Shown here piece after piece: positions 2,393 through 29,525 of a DNA stretch of 64,000 bases. A program made the position numbers and the translations under genes. This DNA is from Alphaproteobacteria bacterium (lineage in GTDB: Bacteria; Pseudomonadota; Alphaproteobacteria; UBA2966): NCBI GenBank assembly GCA_964291395.2, contig OZ219856.1:704001-768000 (forward strand). Reading direction: 5' to 3'. The notes beneath the pieces are model-generated. The model was not told where the DNA came from, did not search any database, and was given only the letters and a program-made list of their open reading frames with translations. Position 1 is the first letter of the stretch; each line of letters opens with the position of its first letter.

Positions 2393-2558
2393 GATGGAGA
2401 GGATTGAGGTCAAGAGCGGGCCATTCACATGCTGGACTAATGTGTGAACCGTGCGAACAAGCTCGGCGGGCGGCCGCCAAACGTCCGTGAAGGAACGGTC
2501 ATTGTCGGGTGTTCCGGGACGGGTTCGGCGCGCACCCGCGCCGGCGCCGTCCCCGGGG

Positions 2559-2987
2559 CTACGGTACTTGGGCCACCACGTCGATCTCCAGGAGCATGTC
2601 CCGGTGCGCCAGGGACGGGATCTGGATCAGCGTGCGGGGCGGCATGCGCTCGCGCCCGAACAGCTCCCAGGTGATCTCGTTCAAGACGTCCTGGTCGCGC
2701 ATGACGTCGATCAGGTAATGCGTCATCTTGACGATATTGGTGAGGTCGGCATCCGCCGCCGCGAGGATCCGCTCGATGTTCTCGAAGGTCCGCTCGCACT
2801 GCGCGCGGAACCCGCCCTCGTACCATTTTGCTTCCTCCACGGGGTCGTGGGGATGCCTGTGATAGATGGGCACCGGACCCATGCCGGAGAGCCACAGAGT
2901 CCGGCCGCCCTCGACCGAGAATGCCGGCACGAACGGCATGTTGTGCTCGGGCAGCGGGGTGCCCGGATGGACGGGTGTGATCTTCAT
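2559..2987 (-). CDS. RidA/YjgF family protein
   Basis: LWLSG, AQCERTFENIERIL, PPRT (conserved Arg) and LLEIDVVA motifs; GGAGG RBS before ATG 2987. Confidence 0.85.
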   Translation of the reverse strand: MKITPVHPGTPLPEHNMPFVPAFSVEGGRTLWLSGMGPVPIYHRHPHDPVEEAKWYEGGFRAQCERTFENIERILAAADADLTNIVKMTHYLIDVMRDQDVLNEITWELFGRERMPPRTLIQIPSLAHRDMLLEIDVVAQVP

Positions 2988-3051
2988 GATTTCCGCCTCC
3001 AATGAGTGGAAGGGGTTGGGGGACGGTCGGTCGTCCCGGCGGCACTCCCAC

Positions 3052-3084
3052 GATACCCCGACATGGCGCGAAGTGTGCGAATTC
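3052..3084 (+). repeat. 33-bp direct repeat, left copy (partner 3844-3876)
   Basis: GATACCCCGACATGGCGCGAAGTGTGCGAATTC; 30 of 33 positions identical to the right copy. Confidence 0.9.
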
Positions 3085-3141
3085 GACTCGGTGGCCGGCT
3101 GCGGAACGGAAACGCGTGTACACAGACATTGATAGTGACCA

Positions 3142-3156
3142 GTCATATGATATGAC
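3142..3156. promoter_or_regulatory. Perfect palindrome, likely antitoxin autoregulatory operator
   Basis: GTCATAT-G-ATATGAC, 25 bp upstream of the phd-type start codon. Confidence 0.6.
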
Positions 3157-3180
3157 CATTAAAGAGGAAGGAATGGGGAG

Positions 3181-3405
3181 ATGAAGACGATCGGTGCAGC
3201 GAAGTTCAAGGAACGGTGCCTGGCGTTGCTCGATCACCTTGATCACGACGGGCTGGTCATCACCAAGCGCGGCAAGCCCGTCGCGCGCCTGCTTCCATTC
3301 GAGCAGCACCACGCCGAACTGATCGGCAGTCTGCGTCACAAGGTCGAAGTTCGGGGCGACATTCTCGCCACCGGAATCGAATGGAACGCCGATGCTCAAT
3401 CTTGA
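3181..3405 (+). CDS. Phd/YefM family antitoxin
   Basis: MKTIGAAKFKERCLALLD...LVITKRGKPVARL; 74 aa; overlaps a PIN gene. Confidence 0.9.
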   Translation: MKTIGAAKFKERCLALLDHLDHDGLVITKRGKPVARLLPFEQHHAELIGSLRHKVEVRGDILATGIEWNADAQS

Positions 3406-3787
3406 CACCCACGTACTCGTCTTCGCGGTCAGCGGCGCGCTTCGCCCGGCGGAACGCGCGCTGTTGGCGCGCGACAGGTGGTCGGTTTCGGCCATCGTGC
3501 TGTAGGAGCTCGCCAAGTTCATCCGGCTTGGCCGGGTGGGCATGGACCTCGATGATCGCGACGTCGCCGGCATGCTCGACCGCGTGCATGTCTGGCCCAT
3601 TGACCTCGACGTCGCGCGAGCCTCCACCCGCCTCGACTTCAAGGGCGACCCGGCGGACGAGATCATCGCGGCTACCAGCGTCGTGCACGTCGTCCCTCTG
3701 GTCACCCGCGACCGCGTCATCAGGCAGTCGAAGATCGTCCCCCTAGCCACGGCGGATGGAGAAGACGAGGCACGGCGGGAATTCTGA
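3392..3787 (+). pseudogene. vapC: VapC/PIN toxin with in-frame amber stop
   Basis: MLNLDTHVLVF...SVSAIVL*ELAK...DPADEIIAATS...LVTRD. TAG at 3503-3505 occupies the position of the family Trp (S..WE motif). Confidence 0.85.
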
Positions 3788-3924: not shown

Positions 3925-4854
3925 TCAGCCGCCGGCCGCCTTCGCGGCCACGATGGCGGCGATGAAGGCGGCGGCCAGACGCGCTTCGGGCGGGTCGGCC
4001 CGCGACGTCAGCACGATCGGCACCCTGGTGCCCATGACCACGCCGGCCGCCGTGGCGCTCATGAAGTAGACCATCTGCTTGAACAGGATGTTGCCGGCCT
4101 CGACGTTGGGCACGACGAGGATATCGGCGTTGCCCGCGACCGGGCTCTCGATGCTCTTCAACCGGGCGGCCTCGGGCGAGACCGCGTTGTCGAAGCCGAA
4201 GGGGCCGTCGACTGCCGCGCCCGTCACCTCGCCGCCGGCCGCGCGCGCGGCGACCTCGGCGGCCTGGACGCTCGACGGCATGCCGGGGTTGACGACCTCG
4301 GCGCCCGAGAGGAGGGCCACGCGGGGCTCCCGGGGGTCGAGGGCCCGGGCCAGCTCGACGGCGTTGTTGACGATGTCGAGCATCTCGTCCGCGTCGGGCC
4401 GGACGTTGACCACCGCATCGGTGACGTGGAGGACGCCGCTGCGGCCCGGAGCCGTCATGTGGAAGACGTGGCTCACGCGCCGGCCGGTGCGCAGGCCCGC
4501 ATCCCGGCGCAGGACCGCGCGCATCAGGGCGTCGGTGTGCACGTGGCCCTTCATGATCGCCGCCGCCTCGCCGCTCCCGGCGAGTGCCGCCGCGGCCTCC
4601 GCCTTCTTCGCCTCGTCCGCCTCCTCGACGATGCGGACCCCGCCGAGGTCCCAGCCCGCGTCCCCCGCGAGGGACCGGATGGCGTCCGCCTCGCCGATCA
4701 GGACGGGTTCGATGGCGCCCGCCTCGGCGGCCCGCCGCGCGCTCGTCAGGGCCACGGGGTGGTCGGCGCCCGCCACGGCCATCGGGACGCGGGGCAGCCC
4801 GCCCGCGAGTTCCATCAGGTATGCGGGGACCTCGAAGGGCTCGGTGCTCAGCAT
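3925..4854 (-). CDS. pta: Phosphate acetyl/butyryltransferase
   Basis: IMKGHVHT, VDGPFGFDNAVS, ILVVPNVEAGNILFK and PIVLTSRAD motifs; directly downstream of xsc. Confidence 0.9.
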   Translation of the reverse strand: MLSTEPFEVPAYLMELAGGLPRVPMAVAGADHPVALTSARRAAEAGAIEPVLIGEADAIRSLAGDAGWDLGGVRIVEEADEAKKAEAAAALAGSGEAAAIMKGHVHTDALMRAVLRRDAGLRTGRRVSHVFHMTAPGRSGVLHVTDAVVNVRPDADEMLDIVNNAVELARALDPREPRVALLSGAEVVNPGMPSSVQAAEVAARAAGGEVTGAAVDGPFGFDNAVSPEAARLKSIESPVAGNADILVVPNVEAGNILFKQMVYFMSATAAGVVMGTRVPIVLTSRADPPEARLAAAFIAAIVAAKAAGG

Positions 4855-4949: not shown

Positions 4950-6731
4950 CTACGCGCCGACCTGGGGCCGCATGTCGGCCGGGTCGATGCCGGCGACCGC
5001 GACCGGCGCCTTCATCGCGTCGCGGCGGAACGGCTCGCCCAGCTCCTGGTTCAGCACGACCTCGACGAAGGTGGTCTCGTTCCTCTCCATCTGCCCTTCG
5101 ATGGCGTCGGACAGCGCCTCCGTCAGGCCGCCCGTCGTCGTCACCTGAACGCCCTTCAGGCCGCAGGCTTCGGCGATCCCGGCGAACCGCACGTCGAGGT
5201 CGAGCTCGGTGCCGACGAAATTGTCGTCGAACCACAGCGTGGTGTTCCGCTTCTCGGCGCCCCACTGGTAGTTCCGGAAGACGACCATCGTGATCGGCGG
5301 CCACTCGCCCCGCCCGCAGGACGACATCTCGTTCATGGAGATGCCGAAGGCGCCGTCGCCGGCGAAGCCGACCACCGGCACGTCGGGCTTGGCGATCTTC
5401 GCCCCGAGGATCGCCGGGAAGCCGTAGCCGCAGGGGCCGAACAGGCCCGGCGCCAGGTATTTGCGGCCCTTCTCGAAGGTCGGATAGGCGTTGCCGATGG
5501 CGCAGTTGTTGCCGATGTCGGACGAGATGATCGCCTCCCCCGGCAGGGCCGCCTGGATGGCCCGCCATGCCATGCGCGGGCTCATGCGGTCGGGCTGGGC
5601 CGTGCGGGCGCGCTCGTTCCAGGTCGTTCCGGGGTCGTCCTCCTCGTGGTCCATCGAGGAGAGAAGCTGGAGCCAGGCCGACTTCGTCTGCGCGACGAGG
5701 GCCTCGCGTTCCTTGCGCCCCTTGTCGCCGGCCGTGCCGGAGAGCCCGGCGAGGAGCTGCTTCGCGACGGCCTTGGCGTCGCCCTGGATGGCCACGGTTA
5801 CCGGCTTGGTCAGGCCGATCCGGTCGGAATTGATGTCGACCTGGATGAGCTTCGCGTCCCCGGGCCAGTAGTCGATCCCGTAGCCGGGCAGGGTGGAGAA
5901 CGGGTTGAGGCGCGTGCCGAGCGCCAGGACGACGTCGGCCTTCGAAATGAGCTCCATCGCGGCCTTCGAGCCGTTGTAGCCGAGAGGGCCGACCGACAGG
6001 GGGTGGCTGCCCGGGAAGGCGTCGTTGTGCTGGTAGTTGCAGCACACGGGGGCCGACAGCTTCTCCGCGAGCTTTGCCGACGCTTGAATGCCGCCGGACA
6101 GCACGACGCCGGCGCCGTTCAGCATCACGGGGAACTCCGCCTTGGAAAGGAGGTCGGCCGCTTCCTCGATGGCGGCCGTGCCGCCGCGCGGGCGCTCGAG
6201 GCGCACGATCTGCGGCAGGTCGATGTCGATGACCTGCGTCCAGTAGTCGCGCGGCACGTTGATCTGGGCCGGCGCCGACAGCCGGAAGGCGTTCTCGATG
6301 ACGCGGTTCAGCACCTCGGCCATGCGCGAGGGATCGCGGACCTCCTCCTGATAGCAGACCATGTCCTCGAACAGCTTCATCTGCTCGATCTCCTGGAAGC
6401 CGCCCTGGCCGATGGTCTTGTTGGCGGCCTGCGGCGTCACCAGCAGCAGCGGCGTGTGGTTCCAGTACGCGGTCTTCACCGGCGTCACGAAATTGGTGAT
6501 GCCCGGACCGTTCTGCGCGACCATCATGCACATCTTGCCCGAGGCGCGGGTATAGCCGTCGGCCATCATTCCGGCGTTGCATTCGTGCGCGCAGTCCCAG
6601 AACGTGATCCCCGCCGTGGGAAAGAGGTCGGAGATGGGCATCATCGCCGAACCGATGATCCCGAAGGCATGCTCGATACCGTGCATCTGGAGAACCTTCA
6701 CGAAGGCTTCTTCCGTGGTCATTTTCGTCAT
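4950..6731 (-). CDS. xsc: Sulfoacetaldehyde acetyltransferase (ThDP)
   Basis: MTTEEAFVKVLQMHGIEHAFGIIGSA, GDGAFG ThDP motif, NYQWGAEKRN and ELGEPFRRDAM are characteristic of Xsc; AAGGAGG RBS. Confidence 0.95.
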   Translation of the reverse strand: MTKMTTEEAFVKVLQMHGIEHAFGIIGSAMMPISDLFPTAGITFWDCAHECNAGMMADGYTRASGKMCMMVAQNGPGITNFVTPVKTAYWNHTPLLLVTPQAANKTIGQGGFQEIEQMKLFEDMVCYQEEVRDPSRMAEVLNRVIENAFRLSAPAQINVPRDYWTQVIDIDLPQIVRLERPRGGTAAIEEAADLLSKAEFPVMLNGAGVVLSGGIQASAKLAEKLSAPVCCNYQHNDAFPGSHPLSVGPLGYNGSKAAMELISKADVVLALGTRLNPFSTLPGYGIDYWPGDAKLIQVDINSDRIGLTKPVTVAIQGDAKAVAKQLLAGLSGTAGDKGRKEREALVAQTKSAWLQLLSSMDHEEDDPGTTWNERARTAQPDRMSPRMAWRAIQAALPGEAIISSDIGNNCAIGNAYPTFEKGRKYLAPGLFGPCGYGFPAILGAKIAKPDVPVVGFAGDGAFGISMNEMSSCGRGEWPPITMVVFRNYQWGAEKRNTTLWFDDNFVGTELDLDVRFAGIAEACGLKGVQVTTTGGLTEALSDAIEGQMERNETTFVEVVLNQELGEPFRRDAMKAPVAVAGIDPADMRPQVGA

Positions 6732-6844
6732 GTCTGGAAATCCTCCTTGGCCGCGGCCGCCAGCAGCTTCGACGGTCGTCTTGCCTCGCCGCTTGCGGCG
6801 GATTATTAAGCCATTGCCCCGGCACGGGCAAGTTGGCAGGGTCG

Positions 6845-7513
6845 TCACCGGCCGCCCGGAATCACCCCTTCCATGGGCTTCCAGTCCGGCTGGTTCTCGG
6901 GCATCGAGTCGGCGAAGGCGGGCAGTTCGTTGCAGCGCGCGACGATGTCCAGGATTGTCGGATACGGCGACAGGTCGCAGTCGAACCGTCGGGCGTTGTA
7001 GGTCTGCGGAACCAGGCAGAGGTCGGCCAGCGTGGGCGCGTCGCCGCGGCAGAACACGCCCGGCGACTCCCGCGCCGCGAGCATGCCCTCGAGGCCGCTC
7101 AGGCCGGCGGCGATCCAGTTCCCGTACCAGCCGTCGATGTCCTCCGCCGACGCGCCGATCCGGTCGGCCAGATAGCGCCGCACCCGCCGGCCCATCAGGG
7201 GGTGCATGTCGCTCGCGATGGATTGGGCGAAGCTTCTGACCCAGGCCCGTCCGGCCGAATCGGCCGGGAGCAGGGGCGGCTCGGGATAGACCTCTTCCAG
7301 GTACTCGAGGATGGGCAGGGATTGCGCGACCACGATCCCGCCGTCCTCGAGGATCGGCAGCATCCGCTGGGGATTGAGCGCCTCGAACCAGTCCGCTCGG
7401 TGCTCGTCCTCGACCAGGTTGACGATCACCTGCTCCGCCTCGATTCCCTTTAGTTTCAGCGCGATCCGTACCCGATAGGCCGCGTTCGACATGTAAAAAT
7501 CATAAAACTTCAC
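6845..7513 (-). CDS. maiA: Maleylacetoacetate/maleylpyruvate isomerase (GST zeta)
   Basis: SNAAYRVRIALKLKG, QSLPILEYLEE, SDMHPL, TLADLCLVPQ and PENQPD motifs; GTG start inferred. Confidence 0.85.
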   Translation of the reverse strand: MKFYDFYMSNAAYRVRIALKLKGIEAEQVIVNLVEDEHRADWFEALNPQRMLPILEDGGIVVAQSLPILEYLEEVYPEPPLLPADSAGRAWVRSFAQSIASDMHPLMGRRVRRYLADRIGASAEDIDGWYGNWIAAGLSGLEGMLAARESPGVFCRGDAPTLADLCLVPQTYNARRFDCDLSPYPTILDIVARCNELPAFADSMPENQPDWKPMEGVIPGGR

Positions 7514-7619
7514 GGTTCCGCTCCCGGTCGGTATGCTTGGCGCCCATTCACGCGAATCGAGCCCGTCATCATAGTTGCCGGGCGGCGCGGAATCCCCCTG
7601 GAAATCGAAGGGTGCGTTC

Positions 7620-8684
7620 ATGGAATTCGGAATTTTCAACCTGCTCAGCCGCCGGCTGGAGTCGCAGACGATCAACCAGATCGTCGAGGAGGCCGCGGAG
7701 ACGGTCAAGCTGGCGGATCAGGCTGGCTTCACCACGGCCTGGTTCCCGGAGCACCACTACTCGAACTACTCGATCGCGCCGTCACCGCTGATGATGTGCG
7801 CCTTTTGCGCCCCCACCACCCGCCGGATCAAGCTCGGCACGGCCATCGTCATCGGCACGCTCTATCAGCCGGCGCGGCTGCTGTCGGAGGTGGCCTTCGT
7901 CGACGGCATGACCGACGGCCGGCTCGTGCTCGGTTTCGGCAGCGGCTATCAGCCTCACGAGTTCAAGCGTTTCGGCATCGATCTGCAGCACTCGCCGGAC
8001 ATCACGGAAGAGGTGCTGGACATCGTGGAGGGCGGACTCACCAACGACTCCTTCGAGTACCACGGCAAGCATTTCGATTTTCCGCATACCTACATGGCCC
8101 TGCGGCCCGTACAGCCCATGCCGGAAGTCTGGATCGCCGGCAACAACGCCCAGATGCAGCGCCGGGCGGCCCGAAGCGGCTATCCGCTGATCGTCTCGGC
8201 GCTGGTGAAGGACATCGATTTCGTGGCGGGCCTGCGCGAAACGGCGGAGCGGAACTGGAACGACGCGGGCGTCGACCCGGCGAACATGCGGCTCGCCACC
8301 CTTCGCTTCGCCTATGTCACCGACGACCACGGGGACGCCCTGGAATTCGGCGACAGCGCACGGTTCCAGTACCGGCTGGCCCGCAACCTGCGCTTCCGCA
8401 AGGAAGAGCTCGAGGAGGGTCTGTTGCCTGAGGTTCCCTTTGAGGACGAACCGACACTGGAGGAGCTCGTCGCGAACAATCCCATCGGCGATCCGGAAAC
8501 GGTCGCGGAGCGTATCGTCGAGGAAGTGCGCAGGGTCGGCTCGTTCCACATGAGCTTGTACATGCACGTCGGCTCGATGCCGCTCGAGAAGTCGATGCGG
8601 TCGATCGAGCGCTTCGCCGCCGAGGTCATGCCCCTCGTGGAGAAGGAGCTGGACGAACCGGTGACCGCCGCCGCCGCCGAGTAG
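7620..8684 (+). CDS. LLM-class (luciferase-like) flavin-dependent oxidoreductase
   Basis: [31 protein letters not shown] and [11 protein letters not shown] motifs. Confidence 0.9.
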
Positions 8685-8728
8685 CGCGAATCAACGGTTT
8701 TCCTTCTCCCGAAGAGGGGAGACGGCAC

Positions 8729-9196
8729 GTGACCGAAACGCTCGATCCCAGCAAGCGGCAGAACATCACCCTGGTGACCGGCGTCATCGGTTCCGATACG
8801 CACATCGTCGGCAACCGCATCCTGTCGATGGCACTGGAAGAGGCGGGGTATTCCATCGTCATCCTCGGCGCCCTGACGCCGGCGGACGAATTCATCAAGG
8901 CCGCCATCGAGACGGCAGCCGACGGCATCATGGTTTCGTCGCTCTATGGCCAGGGCGAGCTCGACTGCCGCGGCTTCAGGGAACTTTGCGTCGAAGCGGG
9001 GCTCGACGACATCCTGCTCTACGTGGGGGGCAACCTCGTCGTGGGCAAGACTCCGTGGGAAGTGGTCGAGAAACGCTTTCTGGACATGGGGTTCGACCGC
9101 GCTTTTCCGCCGGGTACGCGCACCCCGGAGGTCGTCGAGGCCCTGGACAGGGATTTCGCCGCGCGCGCCCGGGGCAAGCGGACCGCCGACTCGTGA
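8729..9196 (+). CDS. mamA: Glutamate/methylaspartate mutase S subunit (B12-binding)
   Basis: [11 protein letters not shown] (DxHxxG), [12 protein letters not shown] and [11 protein letters not shown] closely resemble GlmS/MutS. Confidence 0.93.
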
Positions 9197-10632
9197 GCGG
9201 AGACGCCGCGGCCGCGCTGCTCATCGACTTCGGCAGCACCTACACCAAACTTCGCGCGATCGACCTGGAGCGAGCCGAGATCATCGGTTCGGGCCAGGGA
9301 CCGTCGACGGTCACGACCGACATCACGGTCGGCATGGAGGCGGCGCTCGCGGACCTGGAAGGCCGCATCGGCGGCCTTCCCGATTTCACGTACCGGCTGG
9401 CGACGTCCAGCGCCGCGGGCGGCCTGCGCATGGTCACCGTGGGGCTGGTCAAGGAGCTGACGGCGGAAGCGGCGCGGGTTGCCGCGCTGGGCGCCGGCGC
9501 CAGGCTGATCGGCACGTACGCCTATCGGTTGACCGCCGGCGACATCGCCGGGATCGAGGGTCACAGTCCCGATATCATCCTGCTCGCCGGCGGCACCGAC
9601 GGCGGCAATGACGAAGTGATTCGGCACAATGCCCGGGTCCTCGCGGAGTGCGGCATCACCTGTCCCGTGGTCGTCGCAGGAAACCGGGAGGCGACGGACG
9701 ACATCTCCGCACGGCTGGACTCGGCGGGAAAGACGGCGGTTCCCACCGAGAACGTCATGCCGGAATTCAACGTGCTCAATATCGAGCCGGCGCGCGCCGC
9801 GATCCGCCGGATCTTCATAGATCGGATCGTCCACGCCAAGGGGATCGATCGGGCGGCGGAGATGTTCGACGAGATCCTCATGCCGACGCCGGAGGCGGTC
9901 ATGGAAGGCGCGCGTCTGCTCGCCGACGGCACCGGCGGGCAGAACGGTCTGGGGCCGCTGCTCGTGGTGGACATCGGGGGCGCGACGACGGACGTGCATT
10001 CGGTGGCGGCCGGGGAGCCGACCCTCGAGGGCGCGATTCAGCGAGGGCTGCCCGAGCCTTACGTCAAGCGCACCGTCGAGGGCGATCTCGGGATGCGCCA
10101 CAACGCTCTCTCCATCGTCGAGGCGGCGGGTCTGGACACCCTGGCCTCGGAAGCCAGGCTGACCGGGGATCGCTTCCGGGAAAATCTGGCAATGATTTCC
10201 GGCGACGTGGAACGGCTGCCGGAGACGGACGAGGAACGGGCGGTCGACCGGGCACTCGCGCGTGCCGCGACCCTCATCGCCGTGCGTCGCCACTCGGGCA
10301 GGACCGAGACCGTCTATACGGCCATGGGGCCGGCGGTCGCTCAACACGGAAAGGATTTGTCCGGCGTGGGGGCCGTCATCGGTACCGGCGGCGCGCTCGT
10401 ACACGGAAACGACCCCGCGGGAATCCTGGCCAAAGCGTGCGCCGATCCGAACGACCCGGAGTCGCTCCGTCCGCGTGCGCCCCGCCTGTATCTGGATCGG
10501 GAATATCTGTTATACGCCTGCGGCTTGCTCGGAACCGTGGAGCCGAAAGCCGCCTTGACCTTGGGCCTCGCCCATATGCATCCTGTCGCCGAGGAGGAAC
10601 ACGGGAATGGCCGAAGTTCTGCCGCCGGATAG
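9193..10632 (+). CDS. glmL: Glutamate mutase accessory/reactivating protein GlmL (MutL)
   Basis: [36 protein letters not shown] and [11 protein letters not shown] motifs; GTGA overlap with the S gene. Confidence 0.92.
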
Positions 10633-12115
10633 CGTTGCGTCGCCACTGTCCGAAATCCGGATTCCGGATGACGAATTCGCCAGGATGCGCAAGGAGAACC
10701 TGGCGCGCTGGCCGACGGGCGCGGGCGTCGATTTCGATGCCGCGGTCGACTACCACAAGAACCTGCCCATGCATAAACGGCTCGCCTGGGTGATGCGGCG
10801 GGCGGACGCGGAGGGCCGCACGCTTACCCAGCCGCGCGGCGGCTTCGGCACGCTGGAGATGCAGAGGGAACTGATGACCACCCTCGACCGGGAGGGCTTG
10901 GCCGACATCGTTCCGACCACGACGGACAGCTACACGCGAAACGAGCGCTGGGAACAGGCCCAGCACGGCATCGAGGAGTCGAAGCGCCTGGGGCGCTCGA
11001 TGCTGAACGGGTTCCCCATGGTGAACTACGGGGTCGAGGACACCCGGAAGCTGATCGAGGCGATCGACAAGCCCGCCGTCATGTTGACCGGCACCGCGAT
11101 GCCCAAACTGACCGGCGAAGTCGGCTACGCGGCCGGGTATTCGGGATATCTGGGATCAGCCATCGCCTACACGCTCTCCTACACCAAGGAGATCCCGATC
11201 GAGATCGGCATCCGCAACTACCAGTACCTCGACCGGCTGGCGTCGATGTACCTGGAGCACGGGGTCGAACTGCACCGCCGCCAACCGGGATTTCTCACCG
11301 GGACCAACATCCCGCCCTGTATCGCCATCGTCACGGCCGTGTTGGACGTGCTGCTGGCCGCGGCTCAGGGCGTTCGCAATTACGGCCTCGAGCTCGGTCA
11401 GACGTTGCACCTGATCCAGGACGCCGCCGCCATCCGGGTCTGCCGCGAGATGTGCCAGGAGTATCTGACCAGGAAGGGATACGAGGACGCGTTCACGCCG
11501 GTGACGTCGTTGCACTGGATGGGGGCCTGGCCGCACGACGACGCCCAGTCGGCGGCGATCGTCGCATATGGCGGCACGCTCGCGGCGGTGGGCGGCGCCA
11601 TCAGCGTCACCACGAAGAGTCTCCACGAGGCCTTCGGCATCCCGACACCGGAAGCAAACGCCGAAGGCCTGCGCGTCACCCGTATGGCCATCTACATGGC
11701 CCGCAGCATCAAGCTCGACGGTCTGCCCGAATACGAACGGGAGAAGGAAGTCATCCGCAAGGAGGTCCGCGCCGTCGTCGACAAGGTGTTGGAGATGGGT
11801 GACGGAGACGCGGCCGTCGGTACCGTACGAGCCTGCGAAGCCGGCGTGCTCGATATCCCGTGGTCCCCGAGCCGTTCGGTCAAGGGCCGCATCCTTCCGG
11901 CCCGCGATGCCGATGGATACCTGCGCATCTTGAACCCGGGTGACATGCCGTTTCCGAAGGAAGTCCTCGACTATCACGAGGAGCGCTTGCGCAAGCGCGC
12001 CGAGAAGGACGGCATGCCCTACGACCATGAGCTCGCAGTCTCGAGCGTCTACGAGATCTCCGAGCCGCTCCAGGCGCTGGCGCCGTTCCCCTATGTCCAG
12101 GAAGCGGCGGAATAG
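10607..12115 (+). CDS. glmE: Glutamate-mutase-like E subunit with altered substrate pocket
   Basis: WPTG, QPRGG, DSYTR, SMLNGFP, QYLDRL, WMG and HEAFGIPT are colinear with GlmE, but the QARHG and NEGG motifs are replaced by VMLTG and YLGS. Confidence 0.85.
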   Translation: MAEVLPPDSVASPLSEIRIPDDEFARMRKENLARWPTGAGVDFDAAVDYHKNLPMHKRLAWVMRRADAEGRTLTQPRGGFGTLEMQRELMTTLDREGLADIVPTTTDSYTRNERWEQAQHGIEESKRLGRSMLNGFPMVNYGVEDTRKLIEAIDKPAVMLTGTAMPKLTGEVGYAAGYSGYLGSAIAYTLSYTKEIPIEIGIRNYQYLDRLASMYLEHGVELHRRQPGFLTGTNIPPCIAIVTAVLDVLLAAAQGVRNYGLELGQTLHLIQDAAAIRVCREMCQEYLTRKGYEDAFTPVTSLHWMGAWPHDDAQSAAIVAYGGTLAAVGGAISVTTKSLHEAFGIPTPEANAEGLRVTRMAIYMARSIKLDGLPEYEREKEVIRKEVRAVVDKVLEMGDGDAAVGTVRACEAGVLDIPWSPSRSVKGRILPARDADGYLRILNPGDMPFPKEVLDYHEERLRKRAEKDGMPYDHELAVSSVYEISEPLQALAPFPYVQEAAE

Positions 12116-12142
12116 TCCGGGGCCTTTTCACGGGAGAATGGG

Positions 12143-12538
12143 ATGAAACGCATGCACGTCGGCCTCGTCGTCGAGGACGTGGCCGCCTCGGTGACGTTCT
12201 ACACGCGTCTCTTCGGCCAGCCGCCGAGCCTGGAAAAACCCGACTACGCCAAGTGGATGCTCGACGACCCGCGGGTCAACTTCTCGATCAACTCGCGCGG
12301 CAGTACGCCGGGCGACGTGCATCTCGGCATCCAGGCCGAGGACGAAGCCGAACTGGGCGAACTGCGCGAGCGCTGGACGGCGACCGGCTCGGAGACCCTG
12401 GACAGGAAGGCGCTCACGTGCGGCTATCAGACCCAGAACAAGACCTGGGTACGCGACCCCGAAGGCATGCGCTGGGAAGCCTTTCACACCTATGCGGTCA
12501 CCGACACGTTCGGCAAGAGCGAGTCGGAAGAGCGGTAA
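12143..12538 (+). CDS. VOC-family metalloenzyme (ArsI/CadI-like)
   Basis: MHVGLVV, DYAKWMLDDPRVNFSI, HLGIQ and WVRDPEGMRWEAF motifs; the CCY motif is CGY here. Confidence 0.85.
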   Translation: MKRMHVGLVVEDVAASVTFYTRLFGQPPSLEKPDYAKWMLDDPRVNFSINSRGSTPGDVHLGIQAEDEAELGELRERWTATGSETLDRKALTCGYQTQNKTWVRDPEGMRWEAFHTYAVTDTFGKSESEER

Positions 12539-12567
12539 CGGTTCCGCGCTGCAACTCGGCGCCCATG

Positions 12568-12777
12568 CGGAAGGGGAGTTGACCGGCCATGGCCGACAAG
12601 AAAACCGCGCTGGTTCTGGGTGGAACCGGCATGGTCGGACGGAACCTCGTCATGCTGCTCGACACCCTGGACGACTGGGAGGCGATCGCCGTTTCGCGCC
12701 GGGAACCCTATTTCGAAACCAAGGCGCGTCACATCTCCTGCGACATGACGGAGCCCGACGACTGCAGGGCCAAGCTG
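12568..12777 (+). repeat. 210-bp exact direct repeat, left copy (RBS plus first 63 codons of the SDR at 14238)
   Basis: Appears identical by eye to 14217-14426. Confidence 0.95.
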
Positions 12778-12795
12778 GGTGGGCAGCGCGCTTGA
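12589..12795 (+). pseudogene. Truncated duplicate of the PRISE-like SDR N-terminus
   Basis: MADKKTALVLGGTGMVG...CRAKL, then diverges and stops. Confidence 0.9.
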
Positions 12796-13136
12796 GGTAT
12801 TCACCTACGCCGTGTTCGGCCCACATTTGGTCCTTTACGCGGTGTTCGGCGTTGCTTGCTGCTCAGCCCGATCGTGTTCTGGAGAAACGCCCCTCCTATC
12901 GACCGTATTTGGTCCGGTCCCGGCTTCTGCCTGATCGTGTCACACATGGCCTTGAAGGCTTTACAACGACCTTAAATCAGGCAATTCCGATTATTATTGC
13001 CATAATCTCAACCGCTTGATCGGGCTTCAAATTTCATAAAGTATCGTCAAGTTGTTTCATGCAATTCCATCACGGATTGTGGTGGTGTCGCGCTCCCTTC
13101 GTGGGCGAAACCCGGGAAGGGGGGAAGGGGTGCGAG

Positions 13137-13451
13137 ATGGCCAAGCATATCCGGTGCTACGCCGAGGGCAGAGGTGATGAATGGACCGCGATCTGTCTGA
13201 ACTTCGATATCGCGGTGCAAGGACATTCGTTCGAGGACGTGAAGGAATGCCTTGAGGGCGCAATCGATCTGTTCCTCGAAGGCGTAGCGGAGCTTCCCGC
13301 TAAAGACCGGAACCGTCTCCTGCGTAGATCGGCACCTGTGTCCATGCTGAAGTATTTGCGAGCCGTGGTCTGGTCGTGGATCTTCGGCGACTCGGAGGAT
13401 GGGGAGCAACACCAGCATCACTACACGATGCCGTTTGCCGGCACAGCCTGA
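13137..13451 (+). CDS. HicB-like antitoxin
   Basis: WTAICLNFDIAVQGHSFEDVKECLEGAIDLFLE fits the HicB partial RNase H fold pattern. Confidence 0.7.
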   Translation: MAKHIRCYAEGRGDEWTAICLNFDIAVQGHSFEDVKECLEGAIDLFLEGVAELPAKDRNRLLRRSAPVSMLKYLRAVVWSWIFGDSEDGEQHQHHYTMPFAGTA

Positions 13452-13457
13452 CCGGCT

Positions 13458-13668
13458 TTAGTCGAAATAAGACTTCGGGAGACCCCTGGCGGATGATCGA
13501 GGGAGTGGCGGGGTGTATATCGTCGCTTTCGCGCGAACAAGCGATAGTCACGAGCCGGACCTTACCGTTGACCACACCACGATAGTTTCTATGGCTTCCC
13601 TTCTGGCGTTTCAACTCGAAACCGTTCCGAAGCAGGACGCGAACGATGTCTCGGAATTTCTTCGTCAT
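13458..13668 (-). pseudogene. hicA: HicA toxin with C-terminal frameshift
   Basis: FRDIVRVLLRNGFELKRQKGSH (GSH motif). The expected ending GLPKSYFD* lies in another frame and stops at TAA 13458. Confidence 0.75.
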
Positions 13669-14216
13669 CTGAATGTGGTCGGCGTGCTCACGGAGTCACC
13701 TTGCTCGCACCGAACATGACGCGCACCGCGATTCTGCGCGTCTCTGGCTTTCATCAATCAAATGTAGACAAATCAATATGTTGTCATAATCATCCACAGG
13801 TCGGTTCGATTTGTAACTGGATCTTCCCACAAGATTTTGTGTCGACACGACACTTATTTTCCATATTTTGAGGGTGCGCCACTGCTTTGTGCGACTGTGA
13901 GAACGTAGGACGAACACGCCGCCGTACATACGCTGCGTCGATCGACTCGTCCGTCACGTCGTCGAGAACGGCCGTCATCGGTCTCGCCCCGGTCGATGGA
14001 TGCCAGCGGTCCATTTACGCGGGTGTACCAGCGGGTCGAAACGCGAGCTCGGCTTCGGGCGCATCCCGACGGTCGGGGTCACGGCGCGACAAGAGCGCGC
14101 GCGGATGCGATTCGGGACCCTCCCGCCCTGTCGGGCGGAGGAACGCAAGTCGGGAGGATGTCGATAGAAAGCGGAATCGGCGTGCCTGTGATATAAGCCG
14201 GCCGTGTCGTACCGTT

Positions 14217-14426
14217 CGGAAGGGGAGTTGACCGGCCATGGCCGACAAGAAAACCGCGCTGGTTCTGGGTGGAACCGGCATGGTCGGACGGAACCTCGTC
14301 ATGCTGCTCGACACCCTGGACGACTGGGAGGCGATCGCCGTTTCGCGCCGGGAACCCTATTTCGAAACCAAGGCGCGTCACATCTCCTGCGACATGACGG
14401 AGCCCGACGACTGCAGGGCCAAGCTG
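14217..14426 (+). repeat. 210-bp exact direct repeat, right copy
   Basis: Appears identical by eye to 12568-12777. Confidence 0.95.
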
Positions 14427-15307: not shown

Positions 15308-15847
15308 GTGGCGCGAGAGTCCGACAACGGGGGCGAGGGGCAGGCGCTCAGCTATACCGACGTTCTCGATATTCTCGAGATCGTCGACGGCGTCGGCGAG
15401 GGCTGCGAGCTGACCGTCGACGTGGGCGACTTTCATCTGCATTTCGTGAAGGATGCCGCAGGCGGGGCGTCGGCAAGTCCGGAACCGGCGCCCGGGCCCG
15501 AACCTGCGGTTCCCGGACCGCGGGCCGCCGAAACGGAGGAACCGGCACCCACGGAGGCGTCCGAAACGGAGGCCTTTTCGGCCGACGAGCCGGCGGACCC
15601 CAATCTGTTCGAAGTCGAGTCGCCGATGGTCGGGACATTCTATCGTCGTCCGGCTCCGGACCGGCCGCCGTTCGTCGAAATCGGCCAGGACGTGGGACCC
15701 GACGACGCGGTCTGCCTCGTCGAGGTGATGAAACTGTTCAATACCATCGTGGCCGGCCAGGCCGGACGCATCGCCGAAATCTGCGTCGAGGATGCCACGC
15801 CCGTCGCGGTGGGACAGGTCCTCGTCCGCATCGATCCCGCGGACTGA
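15308..15847 (+). CDS. Biotin carboxyl carrier protein
   Basis: SPMVGTFYRRP, CLVEVMKLFN (biotinylated Lys) and an Ala/Pro linker; GTG start inferred. Confidence 0.88.
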   Translation: MARESDNGGEGQALSYTDVLDILEIVDGVGEGCELTVDVGDFHLHFVKDAAGGASASPEPAPGPEPAVPGPRAAETEEPAPTEASETEAFSADEPADPNLFEVESPMVGTFYRRPAPDRPPFVEIGQDVGPDDAVCLVEVMKLFNTIVAGQAGRIAEICVEDATPVAVGQVLVRIDPAD

Positions 15848-15869
15848 CCCGGCCGTACCGTATCCTCCC

Positions 15870-17339
15870 GTGAGCCGCGAGATCCCCATCGTCGAAGAAG
15901 CCCTGCGGGATGCCCACCAGTGCCTGTGGTCGACCCGCATGACCAACGAGATGATGCTGCCCATCGTCGAGCGCATGGACGCGGTGGGCTACGACGCGAT
16001 GGACCTGATCGGCGGTGCGGTCTGGGATGTTTCGATCCGCTTTCTGCTGGAGGACCCGTGGGAGCGGATCCGGCACGTTCGCAGGCTCGTGACCAGAACA
16101 CCCCTGAATGCCTGGGTCCGCGGTCAGAGTCTGTGGACCTTCGAGGTCTTTCCGGACGAGGTGGTCGAGCTCGCCATGGAGCGACTGGCGGCGAACGGCA
16201 TTCGGCGGGCCACGATCTACGACCACATCAACGACATGGAGGGTCTCCACGTCGTCGTCGGCAAAGCGGTCGAAGTCGGGCTCGAGGTGTCGGGCGCCCT
16301 GGTCTTCACCTTGAGCCCGGTCCATACGGACGGGCATTTCGCCGAGCGCGCGGCCCAATTCGTCCGGATGGGTGCGACCGAGGTCGTCGTCAAGGACCCG
16401 AGCGGTCTTCTGTCGGTCGAGCGCATCCGAACCCTGGCACCGGCCCTCAAGAAGGCCATCGGTGACGCTGCGCTCAACCTGCACACCCACTGCATGACCG
16501 GCCGCGCCCCCGATGTCCTGCTCGAGTCCGTCGACTACGGGATGGACAAGCTGCACTGCGCGATCTCGCCGCTGGCGCACGGCGCGTCTCATTCGCCCAC
16601 GGAATGGATCGCCGAGAAGCTGGTCGGGAAGGGGTACTCGACACGGCTGGACGCGGAACTTCTCGGCGAGATCGCGGACTATTTCCATTTCGTCGCGCGC
16701 CGCTGGGACAAGCCGGTCGGCGAGCCCGTGCCGTTCGACCCGCGCGTGCTGGAGCACCAGATGCCCGGCGGCATGATCTCCAACCTCGCGAGTCAGCTCG
16801 CGACGGTCGGACTGGAACGCCGCCTGGACGAAGTCCTCGACGAGATGGGCCGGGTGCGCAAGGAACTCGGTTACCTGCCGATCGTCAGCCCTTCGGCCCA
16901 GTTCATCGCCACCCAGTCGGTCCTCAACCTGGTGCAGGGGGAGCGCTACAAGACCATTCCCGACGAGCTGCGGAAGTACATTCTCGGCTACTACGGCCGT
17001 CCGCCGGCGCCGGTCGACCAGAACCTCGTCGACCGCGTGGCCAGGAAGAGCTCCGACGTCGTCACCGGGCCCAGCGGCTCTCACGTTCCCCCGGTGCTCG
17101 ACAAGATCCGCAAGGAGCGGGGTCCCTTCGAGTCGGACGATGACCTGCTGCTCGCCGCGATGTATCCGGACGAGATCATCCGCCCTCTGTTCGAAGCGCG
17201 CGACAAGGCCGACTATTCCGCGTTCTACCGCGCCGACACGCCGGCCGACTACCTCCTGAAGGAGGTCAGGGCCCGTCCAGGGCTGCGGAGCTTCGAGCTC
17301 TCCACGGGGGCCGGTTTCGACGTCGTCTATAGTCACTGA
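15870..17339 (+). CDS. Pyruvate carboxylase subunit B/OadA-type carboxyltransferase (no biotinyl domain)
   Basis: LRDAHQ, EDPWER, KDPSG, HTH, HQMPGGMISNL and IVSPSAQ motifs. Confidence 0.88.
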   Translation: MSREIPIVEEALRDAHQCLWSTRMTNEMMLPIVERMDAVGYDAMDLIGGAVWDVSIRFLLEDPWERIRHVRRLVTRTPLNAWVRGQSLWTFEVFPDEVVELAMERLAANGIRRATIYDHINDMEGLHVVVGKAVEVGLEVSGALVFTLSPVHTDGHFAERAAQFVRMGATEVVVKDPSGLLSVERIRTLAPALKKAIGDAALNLHTHCMTGRAPDVLLESVDYGMDKLHCAISPLAHGASHSPTEWIAEKLVGKGYSTRLDAELLGEIADYFHFVARRWDKPVGEPVPFDPRVLEHQMPGGMISNLASQLATVGLERRLDEVLDEMGRVRKELGYLPIVSPSAQFIATQSVLNLVQGERYKTIPDELRKYILGYYGRPPAPVDQNLVDRVARKSSDVVTGPSGSHVPPVLDKIRKERGPFESDDDLLLAAMYPDEIIRPLFEARDKADYSAFYRADTPADYLLKEVRARPGLRSFELSTGAGFDVVYSH

Positions 17340-18637: not shown

Positions 18638-18887
18638 ACACGAACTTGCTTCGGGGCCATGAGTTCATAGGCGGCACAGGTCAGTCGGGTCGAGAGATGG
18701 ACAACCCTGCGGAGGGTCCGCAGGCGTGCATGGAAGGGGGAAAGGCAGCGGAGAAAGCACCGGAACCGAAGATTGTCGACCGATATCTCGAGTTGCCATG
18801 CGGGAGCTTCGGTCTACGGCAGGACCGCGCAGATTACGATTTTGCTTTTATAACGTGACGAATAATGCGACTTTGTCAGTGTCATGT

Positions 18888-19677
18888 ATGCATCTGCCGC
18901 ACCGCGCGCGCGCAACGTCATCGCCGATCTGGTCGCCGGAGCGGCCGGCATCACTTCACCTCGTCCGAGCTTCGCTCGGCCCTTGGGGTCTCCGAGGCGG
19001 CTGTGCGCCAGGCGCTGAGCCGCCTTGCGGCCAAGGGGGAGATCGCTAGCCCCGCGCGGGGGTTCTACGTCATCGTGCCGCCCGAGTACAGGCGGCTCGG
19101 CTGCCTGCCGGCGGATCAGTTCATACCGTTGCTGATGGAGCACTGGGGCGCTCGCTACTACGTGGGCCTCCTCTCGGCAGCGCAATTTCACGGCGCGGCC
19201 CATCATCGCCCGCAGGAATTCCAGGTGGTGGTGGAGAAGAACCGGCCGGCGATAATTTGCGGGGCCGTCCACGTCGCCTTCGTCGCGCGCCGGAACCTCG
19301 ATGCGGTGCCGGTCGAGACGTTCAACAATCCGCGCGGAACCGTTCTTGTCTCGACCGTGGAAGCGACGGCGGTCGACCTCGTCGGATACTTGCGTCGCTC
19401 CGGAGGCGTGGACCGGGTGGCGGGCATACTTTCCGAGCTCAGCGAGGACATGGACCCGGAGCGTCTCGTCGAGGCTTCGAATTCAGCGTCGATCCTCTGG
19501 GCGCAGCGTCTGGGCTACCGGGATCTGGAGCATGTTGGGGCCGGAGACAGAGCGGTGCTGCTCAAGGAGCATGTGCGGCGGCGCGCGCTACAAACTACAC
19601 GAAGCTGGCGGCTGCCCGGCGCGGGACACCGCGGATGCGCCGTTCGGTCGACAGGACTGCTCAGGCGGGGTTCGTGA
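18888..19677 (+). pseudogene. Type IV TA antitoxin AbiEi, frameshifted at both ends
   Basis: HFTSSELRSALGVS, PARGFYVIVPPEY, YYVGLLSAAQFHGAAH, STVEATAVDL and AQRLGY motifs. Confidence 0.8.
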
Positions 19678-19800: not shown

Positions 19801-20039
19801 CAACGCGGCTCCAGCGGCCCTTCAACGCCGCCGGTTTCTCGCCGGGCCAGGGGCGGATATCTCCATCCGTGAGCACCTTTAAACGCTGGACCACTGAGCA
19901 CGTCCCATCCTACCGGAGCGTAAGGGGCGCGCGGCCTTGACTCGCGCCGGGTGCCTCAACACACTGCGCCGGCCCTCCCGGAGCGGCTCTTTCACCCCCG
20001 GTCCAAGCCCCGAGACCCCGGCAACGCGGAGATCGAACC

Positions 20040-20444
20040 ATGGCCGACGGCAACGCCATTCAGCCGCCATTGAAGGCGTACGAGGACGCTCTCGGCAGGG
20101 GCGAGATCATCTATCAGGCGTGTGGCGACTGCGGGCACGTGGCGTTCTATCCGCGCCTCATCTGCCCGGAATGCGGATCCGCGAACGTCGAGTATCGGCC
20201 GAGCGCGGGAAAGGGGGAAGTGTACACGCGTACCGTCGTCCATTCGCGCGGCCGGGATCCCTACAACGTCGTGCTCATCGACATGGACGAGGGATTTCGC
20301 ATCATGAGCACGGTGGAGGACGCGCCCAACGACGACGTGCAGATCGGCATGCGCGTCGAACTGAAGACCGTCTACCCGGTCGAGGACGCCAACGCCAAGG
20401 CGGGCCGGCTGCCCAAGCACGTCTTCAAGCCCGAGGGCAGTTGA
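20040..20444 (+). CDS. DUF35 Zn-ribbon/OB-fold protein
   Basis: CGDCG...YPRLICPECGS, GEVYTRT and IGMRV motifs; TGATG-coupled to a thiolase-like gene. Confidence 0.9.
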   Translation: MADGNAIQPPLKAYEDALGRGEIIYQACGDCGHVAFYPRLICPECGSANVEYRPSAGKGEVYTRTVVHSRGRDPYNVVLIDMDEGFRIMSTVEDAPNDDVQIGMRVELKTVYPVEDANAKAGRLPKHVFKPEGS

Positions 20445-29462: not shown

Positions 29463-29525
29463 TGGCGAGCCTCCGGATGGCAAGGAACGGCGGCGGATGG
29501 AATTTAGCGGCTCGCCGCCGCTTCG

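Follow-up and report, generated by a model that had tools for sequence, protein, structure and literature searches.

The closest described system to the genes considered here is the glutamate mutase of Clostridium cochlearium, formed by GlmS and GlmE and accompanied by GlmL (structures 1CCW, 1CB7, 1I9C, and 6H9E). To our knowledge, only a handful of adenosylcobalamin (AdoCbl)-dependent mutase reactions are known, and the only other AdoCbl carbon-skeleton mutase that we know to act on a free non-amino dicarboxylate is 2-methyleneglutarate mutase. In Eubacterium barkeri, the latter is reportedly a single fused polypeptide that belongs to anaerobic nicotinate fermentation; it shows that a Glm-type reaction is workable with a non-amino migrating group, and it is not known to be linked to sulfonate genes. 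Here, we describe a gene trio of the glutamate mutase type in a stretch of 64,000 nucleotides from Alphaproteobacteria bacterium (GenBank assembly GCA_964291395.2, contig OZ219856.1, positions 704,001 to 768,000), referred to as the window. We tentatively propose, with a probability of roughly 45%, that it encodes an AdoCbl mutase that acts on a sulfonated acid without an amino group and feeds sulfoacetate-type desulfonation, with gene context pointing to the substrate.

The S-L-E trio and its substrate pocket

The trio spans positions 8729 to 12115 of the window and shows the same three-gene set and order as the C. cochlearium system. The first gene (8729-9196, + strand, GTG start, 155 aa) encodes S, a small cobalamin-binding subunit of the GlmS/MutS type. 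It is followed by the gene for L (9193-10632, + strand), a GlmL/MutL-type accessory protein and presumed reactivating chaperone, whose GTG start and the stop of S overlap in GTGA; a TTG at 8986, listed as the L start among the open reading frames (ORFs), was considered too early and was rejected in favor of the GTG at 9193. The third gene (10607-12115, + strand, 502 aa) encodes E, a TIM-barrel catalytic subunit of the GlmE family, with GAGGAGG 10 nt ahead of its ATG and a 26-nt overlap with L. The genes are tightly packed and contain zero internal stops.

All three products score clearly in their families: S with 53 bits on PF02310 and 189.9 bits on NF002612 (cut-off, 110), L with 544 bits on PF13941 and 588.2 bits on NF040745 (cut-off, 475), and E with 471 bits on PF06368 and 463.5 bits on TIGR01503 (cut-off, 390.1). 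The DxHxxG motif of S, D23-T-H25-I-V-G28, lies opposite D-C-H-A-V-G of 1i9c_A (E 8e-49). A preliminary description, made from the DNA and its ORFs alone, had recognized a complete S-L-E trio with an intact DxHxxG motif, and the family scores and this alignment bear it out. A whole-genome profile search found E to be the only PF06368 gene in its own genome, which also carries a PduO-type adenosyltransferase (PF01923, 208.6 bits, at C3:458857). The traits of class I His-on AdoCbl isomerases are thereby all present, namely a cobalamin-binding Rossmann domain, a barrel subunit, K337 and E341, and an adenosyltransferase in the genome. We take K326 and E330 of GlmE, to which K337 and E341 correspond, to have a role in binding the adenosyl group. 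As predicted from these sequences, the trio most likely encodes a base-off/His-on AdoCbl mutase of the E2S2 type together with a GlmL-type chaperone.

E is 40% identical to C. cochlearium GlmE, and HMMER aligns it to 1cb7_B (also 1ccw and 1i9c) as a single ungapped stretch of residues 19-485 onto 8-474 (E 4e-119), with an offset of +11. R66, R100, Y177, and Y181 are kept as R77, R111, Y188, and Y192. R149 is replaced by L160 (codon at 11084), H150 by T161, N170 by Y181, and E171 by L182 (codon at 11150), and the REPFG loop has become R224-R-Q-P-G228 (RRQPG). The AlphaFold2 model of E (pLDDT 94.8, pTM 0.93) superposes on 6h9e_B and 1cb7_B with TM scores of 0.93-0.97 and an rmsd of 1.0 Å over 472-474 columns; positional equivalence is therefore secure, and Arg149 and Glu171 are not restored. 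The pocket of E consequently reads R77, R111, L160, T161, Y181, L182, S184, Y188, Y192, R224-R225-Q226-P227, E262, H303, K337, and E341. The constant offset, the four matches, and the L160-T161, L182, and RRQPG changes with their codon positions had all been read by eye in the preliminary description; the ungapped alignment and the superposition agree with every one of them, and the possibility raised there, that a proper alignment would bring back Arg149 or Glu171, did not materialize.

According to the available part of PMC10947579, R66, R149, and E171 hold the glycyl moiety of the substrate, and R100 and Y177 hold its acrylate part, which backs the roles that the preliminary description had assigned to these residues. 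In E, the three-arginine claw of R66, R100, and R149 is broken by L160 in place of R149, and the contact of Glu171 to the amino group, with His150 beside Arg149, is missing, since these positions are L182 and T161. In sequence and model, the half of the pocket that receives the migrating group is rebuilt, with R77 (R66) as the one arginine left of the upper claw, and the half that receives the stationary carboxylate (R111 and Y188) is intact. A radical 1,2-shift beside a bound carboxylate is probably common to both systems. The enzyme is most likely not a glutamate mutase, its substrate class being suggested by context.

Conservation of the altered pocket and the wider PF06368 family

The pocket changes are not confined to the window. 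We compared E with the 120 best matches of a search of 5.8 billion proteins, which are 72-99% identical to it. L160, Y181, L182, R225, Q226, P227, R77, R111, Y188, Y192, K337, and E341 are present in all 121 sequences, and position 161 is occupied by T in 66 of them and by S in the other 55. From species-representative genomes we assembled 80 loci, 77 of which have a usable E match (75 covering the sites and 2 truncated). All 76 readable rows (75 loci and the window) have L160, L182, and R225, and S and L are present in 63 and 66 of the 77 loci, respectively. The 80 species-level genomes belong mostly to Alpha- and Betaproteobacteria but also to Nitrospira, Acidobacteria, Vulcanimicrobiaceae, and others, and the loci include a Bacillota metagenome-assembled genome (60% identity) and another labeled Chitinophaga. 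Unlike the source of the described enzyme, the bearers are not clostridia, and they presumably respire oxygen.

The invariant clade residue differs from the canonical residue at 17 positions: R149 to L, H150 to T or S, E171 to L, E214 to R, F216 to P (P227), G251 to E (E262), and 11 further fixed differences, among them G173 to S184, Q292 to H303, and F297 to W308. In a library of representatives at 50% identity, the clade appears as one full-length entry at 65% identity plus fragments, and the next full-length proteins are at most 41% identical. The phylogeny of the E family was built with FastTree only. In its 95 rows, the 12 clade rows form a single branch (SH-like support 100, stem length 0.45), the 9 canonical rows lie elsewhere, and the nearest outside rows have other non-canonical pockets. 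Against the close relatives L001-L005, pairwise dN/dS ranges from 0.04 to 0.13 for E, from 0.06 to 0.29 for S, and from 0.08 to 0.29 for L. We conclude that the pocket changes define a conserved clade under purifying selection and do not represent private decay. The preliminary description had considered decay unlikely, which the intact ORFs and the low dN/dS of E confirm. The tree that it called for marks the L/T/L/RRQPG changes as those of a conserved clade with a shared neighborhood, and its fear that they might be unique to one genome under relaxed selection is dispelled by the 120 homologs, the 75 loci, and the low dN/dS.

The canonical set of R149, H150, and E171 is found in just 33 of 118 full-length PF06368 representatives at 50% identity. 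R100, K326, and E330 are nearly universal among them, with 113, 107, and 110 bearers, respectively. An acidic residue (D or E) at position 214 accompanies R149 in 65 of 75 representatives versus 7 of 43 without R149, and Arg at 214 is seen only without R149 (0/75 versus 9/43), these counts ignoring relatedness. The clade has exchanged this R149/acidic-214 pair for L160/R225. An acidic residue at 251 is likewise restricted to non-canonical members (11/85 versus 0/33). The family as a whole appears to comprise a large radiation of B12 mutases that is still unexplored. Its representatives P0124-P0273 display dozens of distinct pocket signatures, and S-E and E-S fusions of 630-660 aa occur among its members. 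A search for longer or fused forms of E among proteins of 880-2510 aa, a range that leaves out the 630-660 aa fusions, gave no match at E <= 1e-10. The database names on record for the clade and nine other variant representatives are all methylaspartate mutase (subunit E or S).

Partner genes, desulfonation genes, and the candidate reaction

Partner genes were identified by de novo ORF clustering of all loci, followed by family scans and then by tblastn counts in the 33 loci outside the window lineage with at least 8 kb of sequence upstream and at least 6 kb downstream. An MLE-type enolase-superfamily gene (MR_MLE) is present in 31 of the 33 loci; it is located on the same strand immediately 5' of S in 26 of its 31 loci, and a QOR-type MDR gene intervenes in 2 more. 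All three tested genomes without MR_MLE at the locus have a 55-57% identical copy elsewhere, two of these copies on the SauS contig at a distance of 5-11 kb and the third 5.6 kb from a partial Xsc match. The MR_MLE of L075, the sole member inspected by residue, retains K-I-K (the KxK of strand 2), the metal ligands D, E, and D, and the K of strand 6 when aligned to 1jpm_A, so that by sequence the partner appears to have the catalytic residues of the MLE subgroup. Its nearest characterized relatives are Ala-D/L-Glu epimerase and N-acetyl-D-Glu racemase, both weak matches, and an ESM Atlas search with it returned only generic MR_MLE, OSBS, and epimerase names.

Also recurrent are TctA (20/33 loci), the MDR (19/33), an SdhB-like gene (13/33), and the acylating sulfoacetaldehyde dehydrogenase SauS (11/33, all 11 with a CoA ligase), followed by an AMP-forming ligase (10/33), a FumA-like gene (7/33), SucCD-like genes (6/33), TauE (4/33), and Xsc (3/33). 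A SauS neighbor scores 776 bits on the SauS equivalog model NF047625 (cut-off, 600). Among PDB entries, 2-haloacrylate reductase 1wly matches the MDR best (E 1e-76), with ordinary quinone reductases scoring almost equally. The idea that MDR and SDH-like genes are mutually exclusive was not supported, as both occur in five loci (Fisher p 0.15). Several of these genes form co-directional strings with the trio: SauS-ligase-TctCBA-MR_MLE-S-L-E in L061, L073, and L029; MR_MLE-S-L-E-MDR-TctCBA-SauS-ligase in L049; S-L-E-Tct-SauS-SucCD-MDR in L013 and L056; and S-L-E-IclR-SauS-SucCD in L009 and L006. In L030 and L071, a Crp-TctCBA-MDR-MR_MLE-S-L-E string faces Xsc-SucDC-SauS. As observations apart, three betaproteobacterial loci (L034 at 6310-6969, L025, and L063) hold a SAM-methyltransferase gene between TctA and MR_MLE in the same string, and L055 (11522-12490 and 13557-15041; also L067) has MFS-MR_MLE-(S)-L-E and then a different luciferase-like oxidoreductase, an MDR, and a proline-racemase-family gene.

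The enzymes found repeatedly with the mutase and a transporter are the CoA ligase and SauS, and the same genomes also have Xsc. These belong to the sulfoacetate pathway of Cupriavidus necator and Bilophila wadsworthia (SauS, SauT or SauCD, and Xsc), in which SauCD and SauS are described in the available text of PMC12890257. The clade loci have SauS, CoA ligases (AMP- or ADP-forming), IclR, Xsc, Pta, and TauE beside or with the mutase, whereas the described pathway requires no mutase, no enolase-superfamily enzyme, and no B12. To quantify this association, we searched 38 clade genomes, those of the 33 loci together with those of L006, L007, L015, L002, and L003. SauS scores above its cut-off in 35 of the 38 versus 21 of 301 genomes sampled from the window's class, and Xsc in 27 of the 38 versus 36 of 301, a contrast that is large despite the one-class baseline. 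Split or partial Xsc matches (530-660 bits) add 6 more clade genomes. The clade itself is found in 3 of the 301 class genomes (G000, G190, and G205), all three of which have both SauS and Xsc; without them, the baseline is 18/298 for SauS and 33/298 for Xsc.

The genome of the window follows this pattern. The thiamine pyrophosphate (TPP) enzyme Xsc, sulfoacetaldehyde acetyltransferase (4950-6848, - strand), scores 926.2 bits on TIGR03457 (cut-off, 676.4) and 1023.6 bits on NF005713, and downstream of it is a Pta-type phosphate acyltransferase (3925-4854, - strand; PF01515, 145.5 bits). This Xsc-Pta pair lies 2-4 kb upstream of the trio and is divergent from the mutase string, and SauS (754 bits) with a SucC-like gene is found approximately 25 kb upstream of the trio. 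A sulfoacetate-type route is therefore indicated by SauS and Xsc above curated cut-offs in the same genome and by the linkage of SauS within 11 of the 33 loci. Methylaspartate ammonia-lyase, which the preliminary description had noted as lacking from the window, is absent from the whole 98.1%-complete genome as far as MAAL_C matches tell (zero found). Whereas glutamate mutase is paired with methylaspartate ammonia-lyase in its pathway, the clade has an MLE-type partner in that place and sulfonate genes as its context. The earlier suggestion of a carboxylate or sulfonate substrate other than L-glutamate and lacking an amino group is supported by the alignment, the clade, purifying selection, and a neighborhood without methylaspartase; within it, a sulfonate has the strongest support, since SauS, Xsc, CoA ligases, and TauE are linked to the trio and co-occur with it.

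The kept pocket residues argue for the same chemistry as in glutamate mutase. The general shift would be X-CH2-CH2-COO- <-> CH3-CH(X)-COO-, where X carries a negative charge and no amino function. Homolysis of the Co-C bond would start the reaction, hydrogen would be abstracted beside the carboxylate held by R111 and Y188, and the substrate would fragment into bound acrylate and a migrating radical, which would recombine one carbon over. A Glm-type shift always yields CH3-CH(X)-COO-, and an alpha-sulfo acid, its CoA ester, and the corresponding aldehyde are what CoA ligase, SauS, and Xsc together act on; sulfonate is therefore the simplest choice of X. In its most specific form, which is the reaction that we favor but regard as possible and doubtful, and in which the substrate is suggested by gene context, the clade would catalyze a radical 1,2-shift of sulfonate between 3-sulfopropanoate and 2-sulfopropanoate. 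3-Sulfopropanoate would be taken up by TctCBA in most lineages and isomerized through acrylate and the sulfite radical anion to 2-sulfopropanoate, an alpha-sulfo acid. Addition of the sulfite radical anion to alkenes and its departure from them are ordinary radical chemistry. The MLE-type partner, probably a racemase, would act on the acidic alpha-proton of 2-sulfopropanoate, and CoA ligase, SauS, and Xsc would then strip the sulfonate to give an acyl phosphate and sulfite. SDH-like and fumarase-like neighbors could serve a route through sulfoacrylate and sulfolactate. The roles of MR_MLE, MDR, and the window's own LLM and VOC proteins (see below) are guesses.

Methylmalonyl-CoA mutase with its epimerase follows the same logic as this scheme, with linear and branched isomers and a separate enzyme for the alpha-proton. 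It differs in that its substrates are CoA esters and its migrating group is a thioester carbonyl, and it has only a distant fold likeness to E (Foldseek E ~1e-9, TM ~0.5). The pocket changes would fit a sulfonate shift in part: E171 to L would remove a charge that repels sulfonate, and R77, perhaps with R225-Q226, could serve as sulfonate ligands. The accessible portion of PMC8473560 describes how isethionate sulfite-lyase IslA holds its sulfonate with two Arg and one Gln. IslA/IseG, a glycyl radical enzyme, likewise applies radical chemistry to a C2-C3 sulfonate, and the invariant R-R-Q of the clade at 224-226 resembles this arrangement by analogy only; IslA/IseG has another fold and cofactor, is oxygen sensitive, and acts by direct elimination rather than migration. 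In the parts of PMC11489063 and PMC12890257 that are available, 3-sulfopropanoate is a product of 2,3-dihydroxypropane-1-sulfonate (DHPS) and sulfoquinovose fermentation, and how it is degraded is described as unclear or not yet reported, apart from a thesis route via sulfoacrylate and sulfolactate. Our own literature search, with most subscription journals outside its scope, turned up neither a GlmE-family enzyme with a substrate other than glutamate nor a B12 enzyme that takes part in sulfonate metabolism.

Several points weigh against a sulfonated substrate. S, L, and E still exceed the cut-offs of the NCBIfam equivalog models for methylaspartate mutase, and R225 (=E214) and E262 (=G251), both invariant in the clade and located on neighboring barrel strands, could restore part of a charged site that suits another substrate. 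The 3-sulfopropanoate scheme has no necessary place for the QOR-type reductase or for the SDH/fumarase-like sets, one or the other of which is present in 27 of 33 loci, and a stereospecific mutase leaves no obvious need for a racemase. The scheme also requires SauS and Xsc to accept methyl-branched homologs, with gene order suggesting the fit of the product. Neither SauS nor Xsc is present in 2 of the 38 clade genomes (G019 and G023), and these 38 genomes span several classes and include related, non-independent genomes, whereas the baseline is one class. Finally, the window and L001-L005 lack MR_MLE, MDR, and Tct beside the trio, and the nearest MR_MLE homologs in the window's genome are only 43-44% identical and 1.3 Mb from the trio.

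Three alternatives were weighed on the same evidence. The MLE-type partner could instead be a sulfo-lyase, an exact analog of the pairing of glutamate mutase with methylaspartase, which is itself an enolase-superfamily enzyme. The mutase would then convert 4-sulfobutanoate to 2-methyl-3-sulfopropanoate, from which methacrylate and sulfite would arise, the QOR-type reductase reducing the 2-substituted acrylate; or it would convert 2-sulfoglutarate to 3-methyl-2-sulfosuccinate, giving mesaconate and sulfite and then engaging the fumarase-like and SDH-like enzymes. MR_MLE does occupy the slot of methylaspartase with a full catalytic set, the closest structure to the MDR is a 2-haloacrylate reductase, TauE sulfite-exporter genes and FumA-like or SDH-like genes (7-13 of 33 loci) are present, and the two clade genomes without SauS and Xsc retain a Tct-MR_MLE-S-L-E module. 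In L051 the MDR is part of that string, whereas in L046 it follows E on the opposite strand. Loss of sulfite at MR_MLE, however, would leave the CoA ligase and SauS, found in the same strings, as well as Xsc without a role. By chemical reasoning, the radicals.CH2-SO3- and.CH2-COO- lack the captodative stabilization of the glycyl radical, and the literature text search did not find sulfoglutarate, sulfobutyrate, sulfoisobutyrate, or sulfomethylsuccinate. We hold a sulfo-lyase pairing to be distinctly unlikely.

It is also unlikely, though a little less so, that the sulfonate genes are mere neighbors in catabolic islands and that the enzyme isomerizes a non-sulfonated dicarboxylate without an amino group, such as methylsuccinate <-> glutarate, 2-methyleneglutarate <-> 3-methylitaconate, or 2-hydroxyglutarate <-> 3-methylmalate. 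The simplest reading of E171 to L is the loss of the amino group and nothing else, and the Tct, SDH-like, class-I fumarase/mesaconase-like, and SucCD-like genes suit C4-C5 dicarboxylates. A QOR-type ene-reductase could reduce itaconate or mesaconate, and glutamate mutase slowly converts 2-hydroxyglutarate. Such a substrate nevertheless leaves unexplained the excess of SauS in clade genomes and the single-strand strings of SauS and ligase, transporter, and mutase; Leu and Leu in place of Arg and Glu are ill suited to a 2-hydroxy group, and no such enzyme was described in the literature searched. Very unlikely, in our estimation, is a mutase of glutamate or another amino-dicarboxylate in which R225 (beta-5) stands in for R149 and E262 (beta-6) for E171. 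The equivalog scores of all three subunits, the restriction of Arg at 214 to members without R149, the tracking of R149 by D/E at 214, the acidic residue at 251 confined to non-canonical members, and the glutamate moieties handled by the weakly matching relatives of MR_MLE speak for relocation. Against it stand the genome without methylaspartase, the 17 differing positions, the separate long branch of the clade, and a gene context of sulfonate rather than amino-acid catabolism.

A methylaspartate-cycle-like assimilation of the acetyl phosphate formed by Xsc was set aside, although it was not disproved. Isocitrate lyase matches at two loci of the window's genome, so no new C2 route is required, and no crotonyl-CoA carboxylase/reductase was found above the cut-off in this genome. 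That the operon includes a Tct transporter likewise speaks for a catabolic module. The two isocitrate-lyase loci (G000:C1:57351-58580 and G000:C2:39071-40297) are near-equal, and their neighbors (C1:64402-65373 and C2:32268-33239) are mirrored too; these segments may be duplicated or mis-binned, given an estimated contamination of 9%.

Surroundings of the trio and implications of the clade

In the window, the trio is preceded by a luciferase-like (LLM) flavin/F420 oxidoreductase gene (7575-8684, + strand) that ends 45 nt ahead of S and occupies the slot held by MR_MLE in other lineages. It is common only to close relatives (3/77 loci in a stricter count and 4/80 in a looser one), and it has no close characterized relative. 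The LLM was rejected as a conserved alternative partner, since it shares just 22% identity with the LLM next to E in L055. A VOC (glyoxalase-fold) gene (12143-12538, + strand) begins 28 nt past E, with 108.1 bits on NF041414, below the cut-off of 116; it is present in 4 of 77 loci, close relatives only. There is no terminator-like site between E and this gene, and a promoter and terminator scan of 7300-14300 gave nothing beyond shuffled expectation. A MaiA-like GST gene (6845-7708, - strand) lies upstream on the opposite strand, as do Xsc and Pta. The genes flanking the trio are common only to L001-L005. Elsewhere in the genome, a tandem MR_MLE pair (G000:C1:2052759-2054927; L087 9712-11979), 43-44% identical to the mutase-linked MR_MLE of L075, stands ahead of an SDR gene and an amidase gene, close to one for a nitrile-hydratase alpha chain, and the same pair occurs in the relative behind L002. 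This pair may or may not be the partner of the window mutase.

In RNA library X13, near-identical contigs account for 29 of the 30 bins of 7575-12538, and two further RNA libraries cover 21/30 and 6/30 bins with pieces that are 95-99% alike; this is weak evidence of expression, as such libraries may contain DNA carry-over. The same interval occurs in 17 runs of many studies, mostly labeled sponge metagenome, at 63-96% of sampled words. Sponge-metagenome runs from at least 10 studies hold 63-79% of the sampled words, and the organism therefore appears to be sponge associated.

Further genes were noted elsewhere in the window. Paralogous carboxyltransferase-type genes (PycB/OadA-like) are found at 15792-17339 (+ strand; NF006761, 442.9 bits) and 27957-29525 (- strand), the second adjoining an ADP-forming acyl-CoA synthetase (25849-27996, - strand; CoA_binding and ATP-grasp_5, 715 aa), and a similar 715-aa ligase is located upstream of the window (G000:C1:691523-693670). 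A thiolase-like/lipid-transfer-type pair (19937-21598 and 21611-22765, + strand; Thiolase_C_1) and a Rieske-domain protein (23570-25021, - strand), with a further thiolase-like gene at G000:C1:695148-696392, may represent a sterol- or aromatic-side-chain-type catabolism. An AbiEi-type antitoxin or regulator (18865-19677, + strand; AbiEi_1, 139.9 bits) has no obvious AbiEii partner among the selected ORFs. Two long ORFs with high GC content at third codon positions (GC3), at 764-2356 and 2437-3750 (both - strand; 530 and 437 aa), are without a Pfam hit at E <= 0.001.

A new substrate class for AdoCbl mutases would be notable for B12 enzymology. We know of no B12 enzyme that catalyzes a sulfonate shift, in which a C-S bond rather than a C-C, C-N, or C-O bond is broken and re-formed; if true, such a shift would be the missing entry step to the aerobic degradation of 3-sulfopropanoate via SauS and Xsc. 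Automatic annotation uniformly names the clade methylaspartate mutase, and metabolic reconstructions are therefore probably wrong where they deduce glutamate fermentation or a methylaspartate cycle from its presence. The canonical pocket in just a fraction of PF06368 representatives means that the family holds many more unexplored specificities. For the clade itself, the link to SauS and Xsc offers a testable candidate for how short sulfo-carboxylates such as 3-sulfopropanoate are degraded, a question raised in the available parts of PMC11489063 and PMC12890257.

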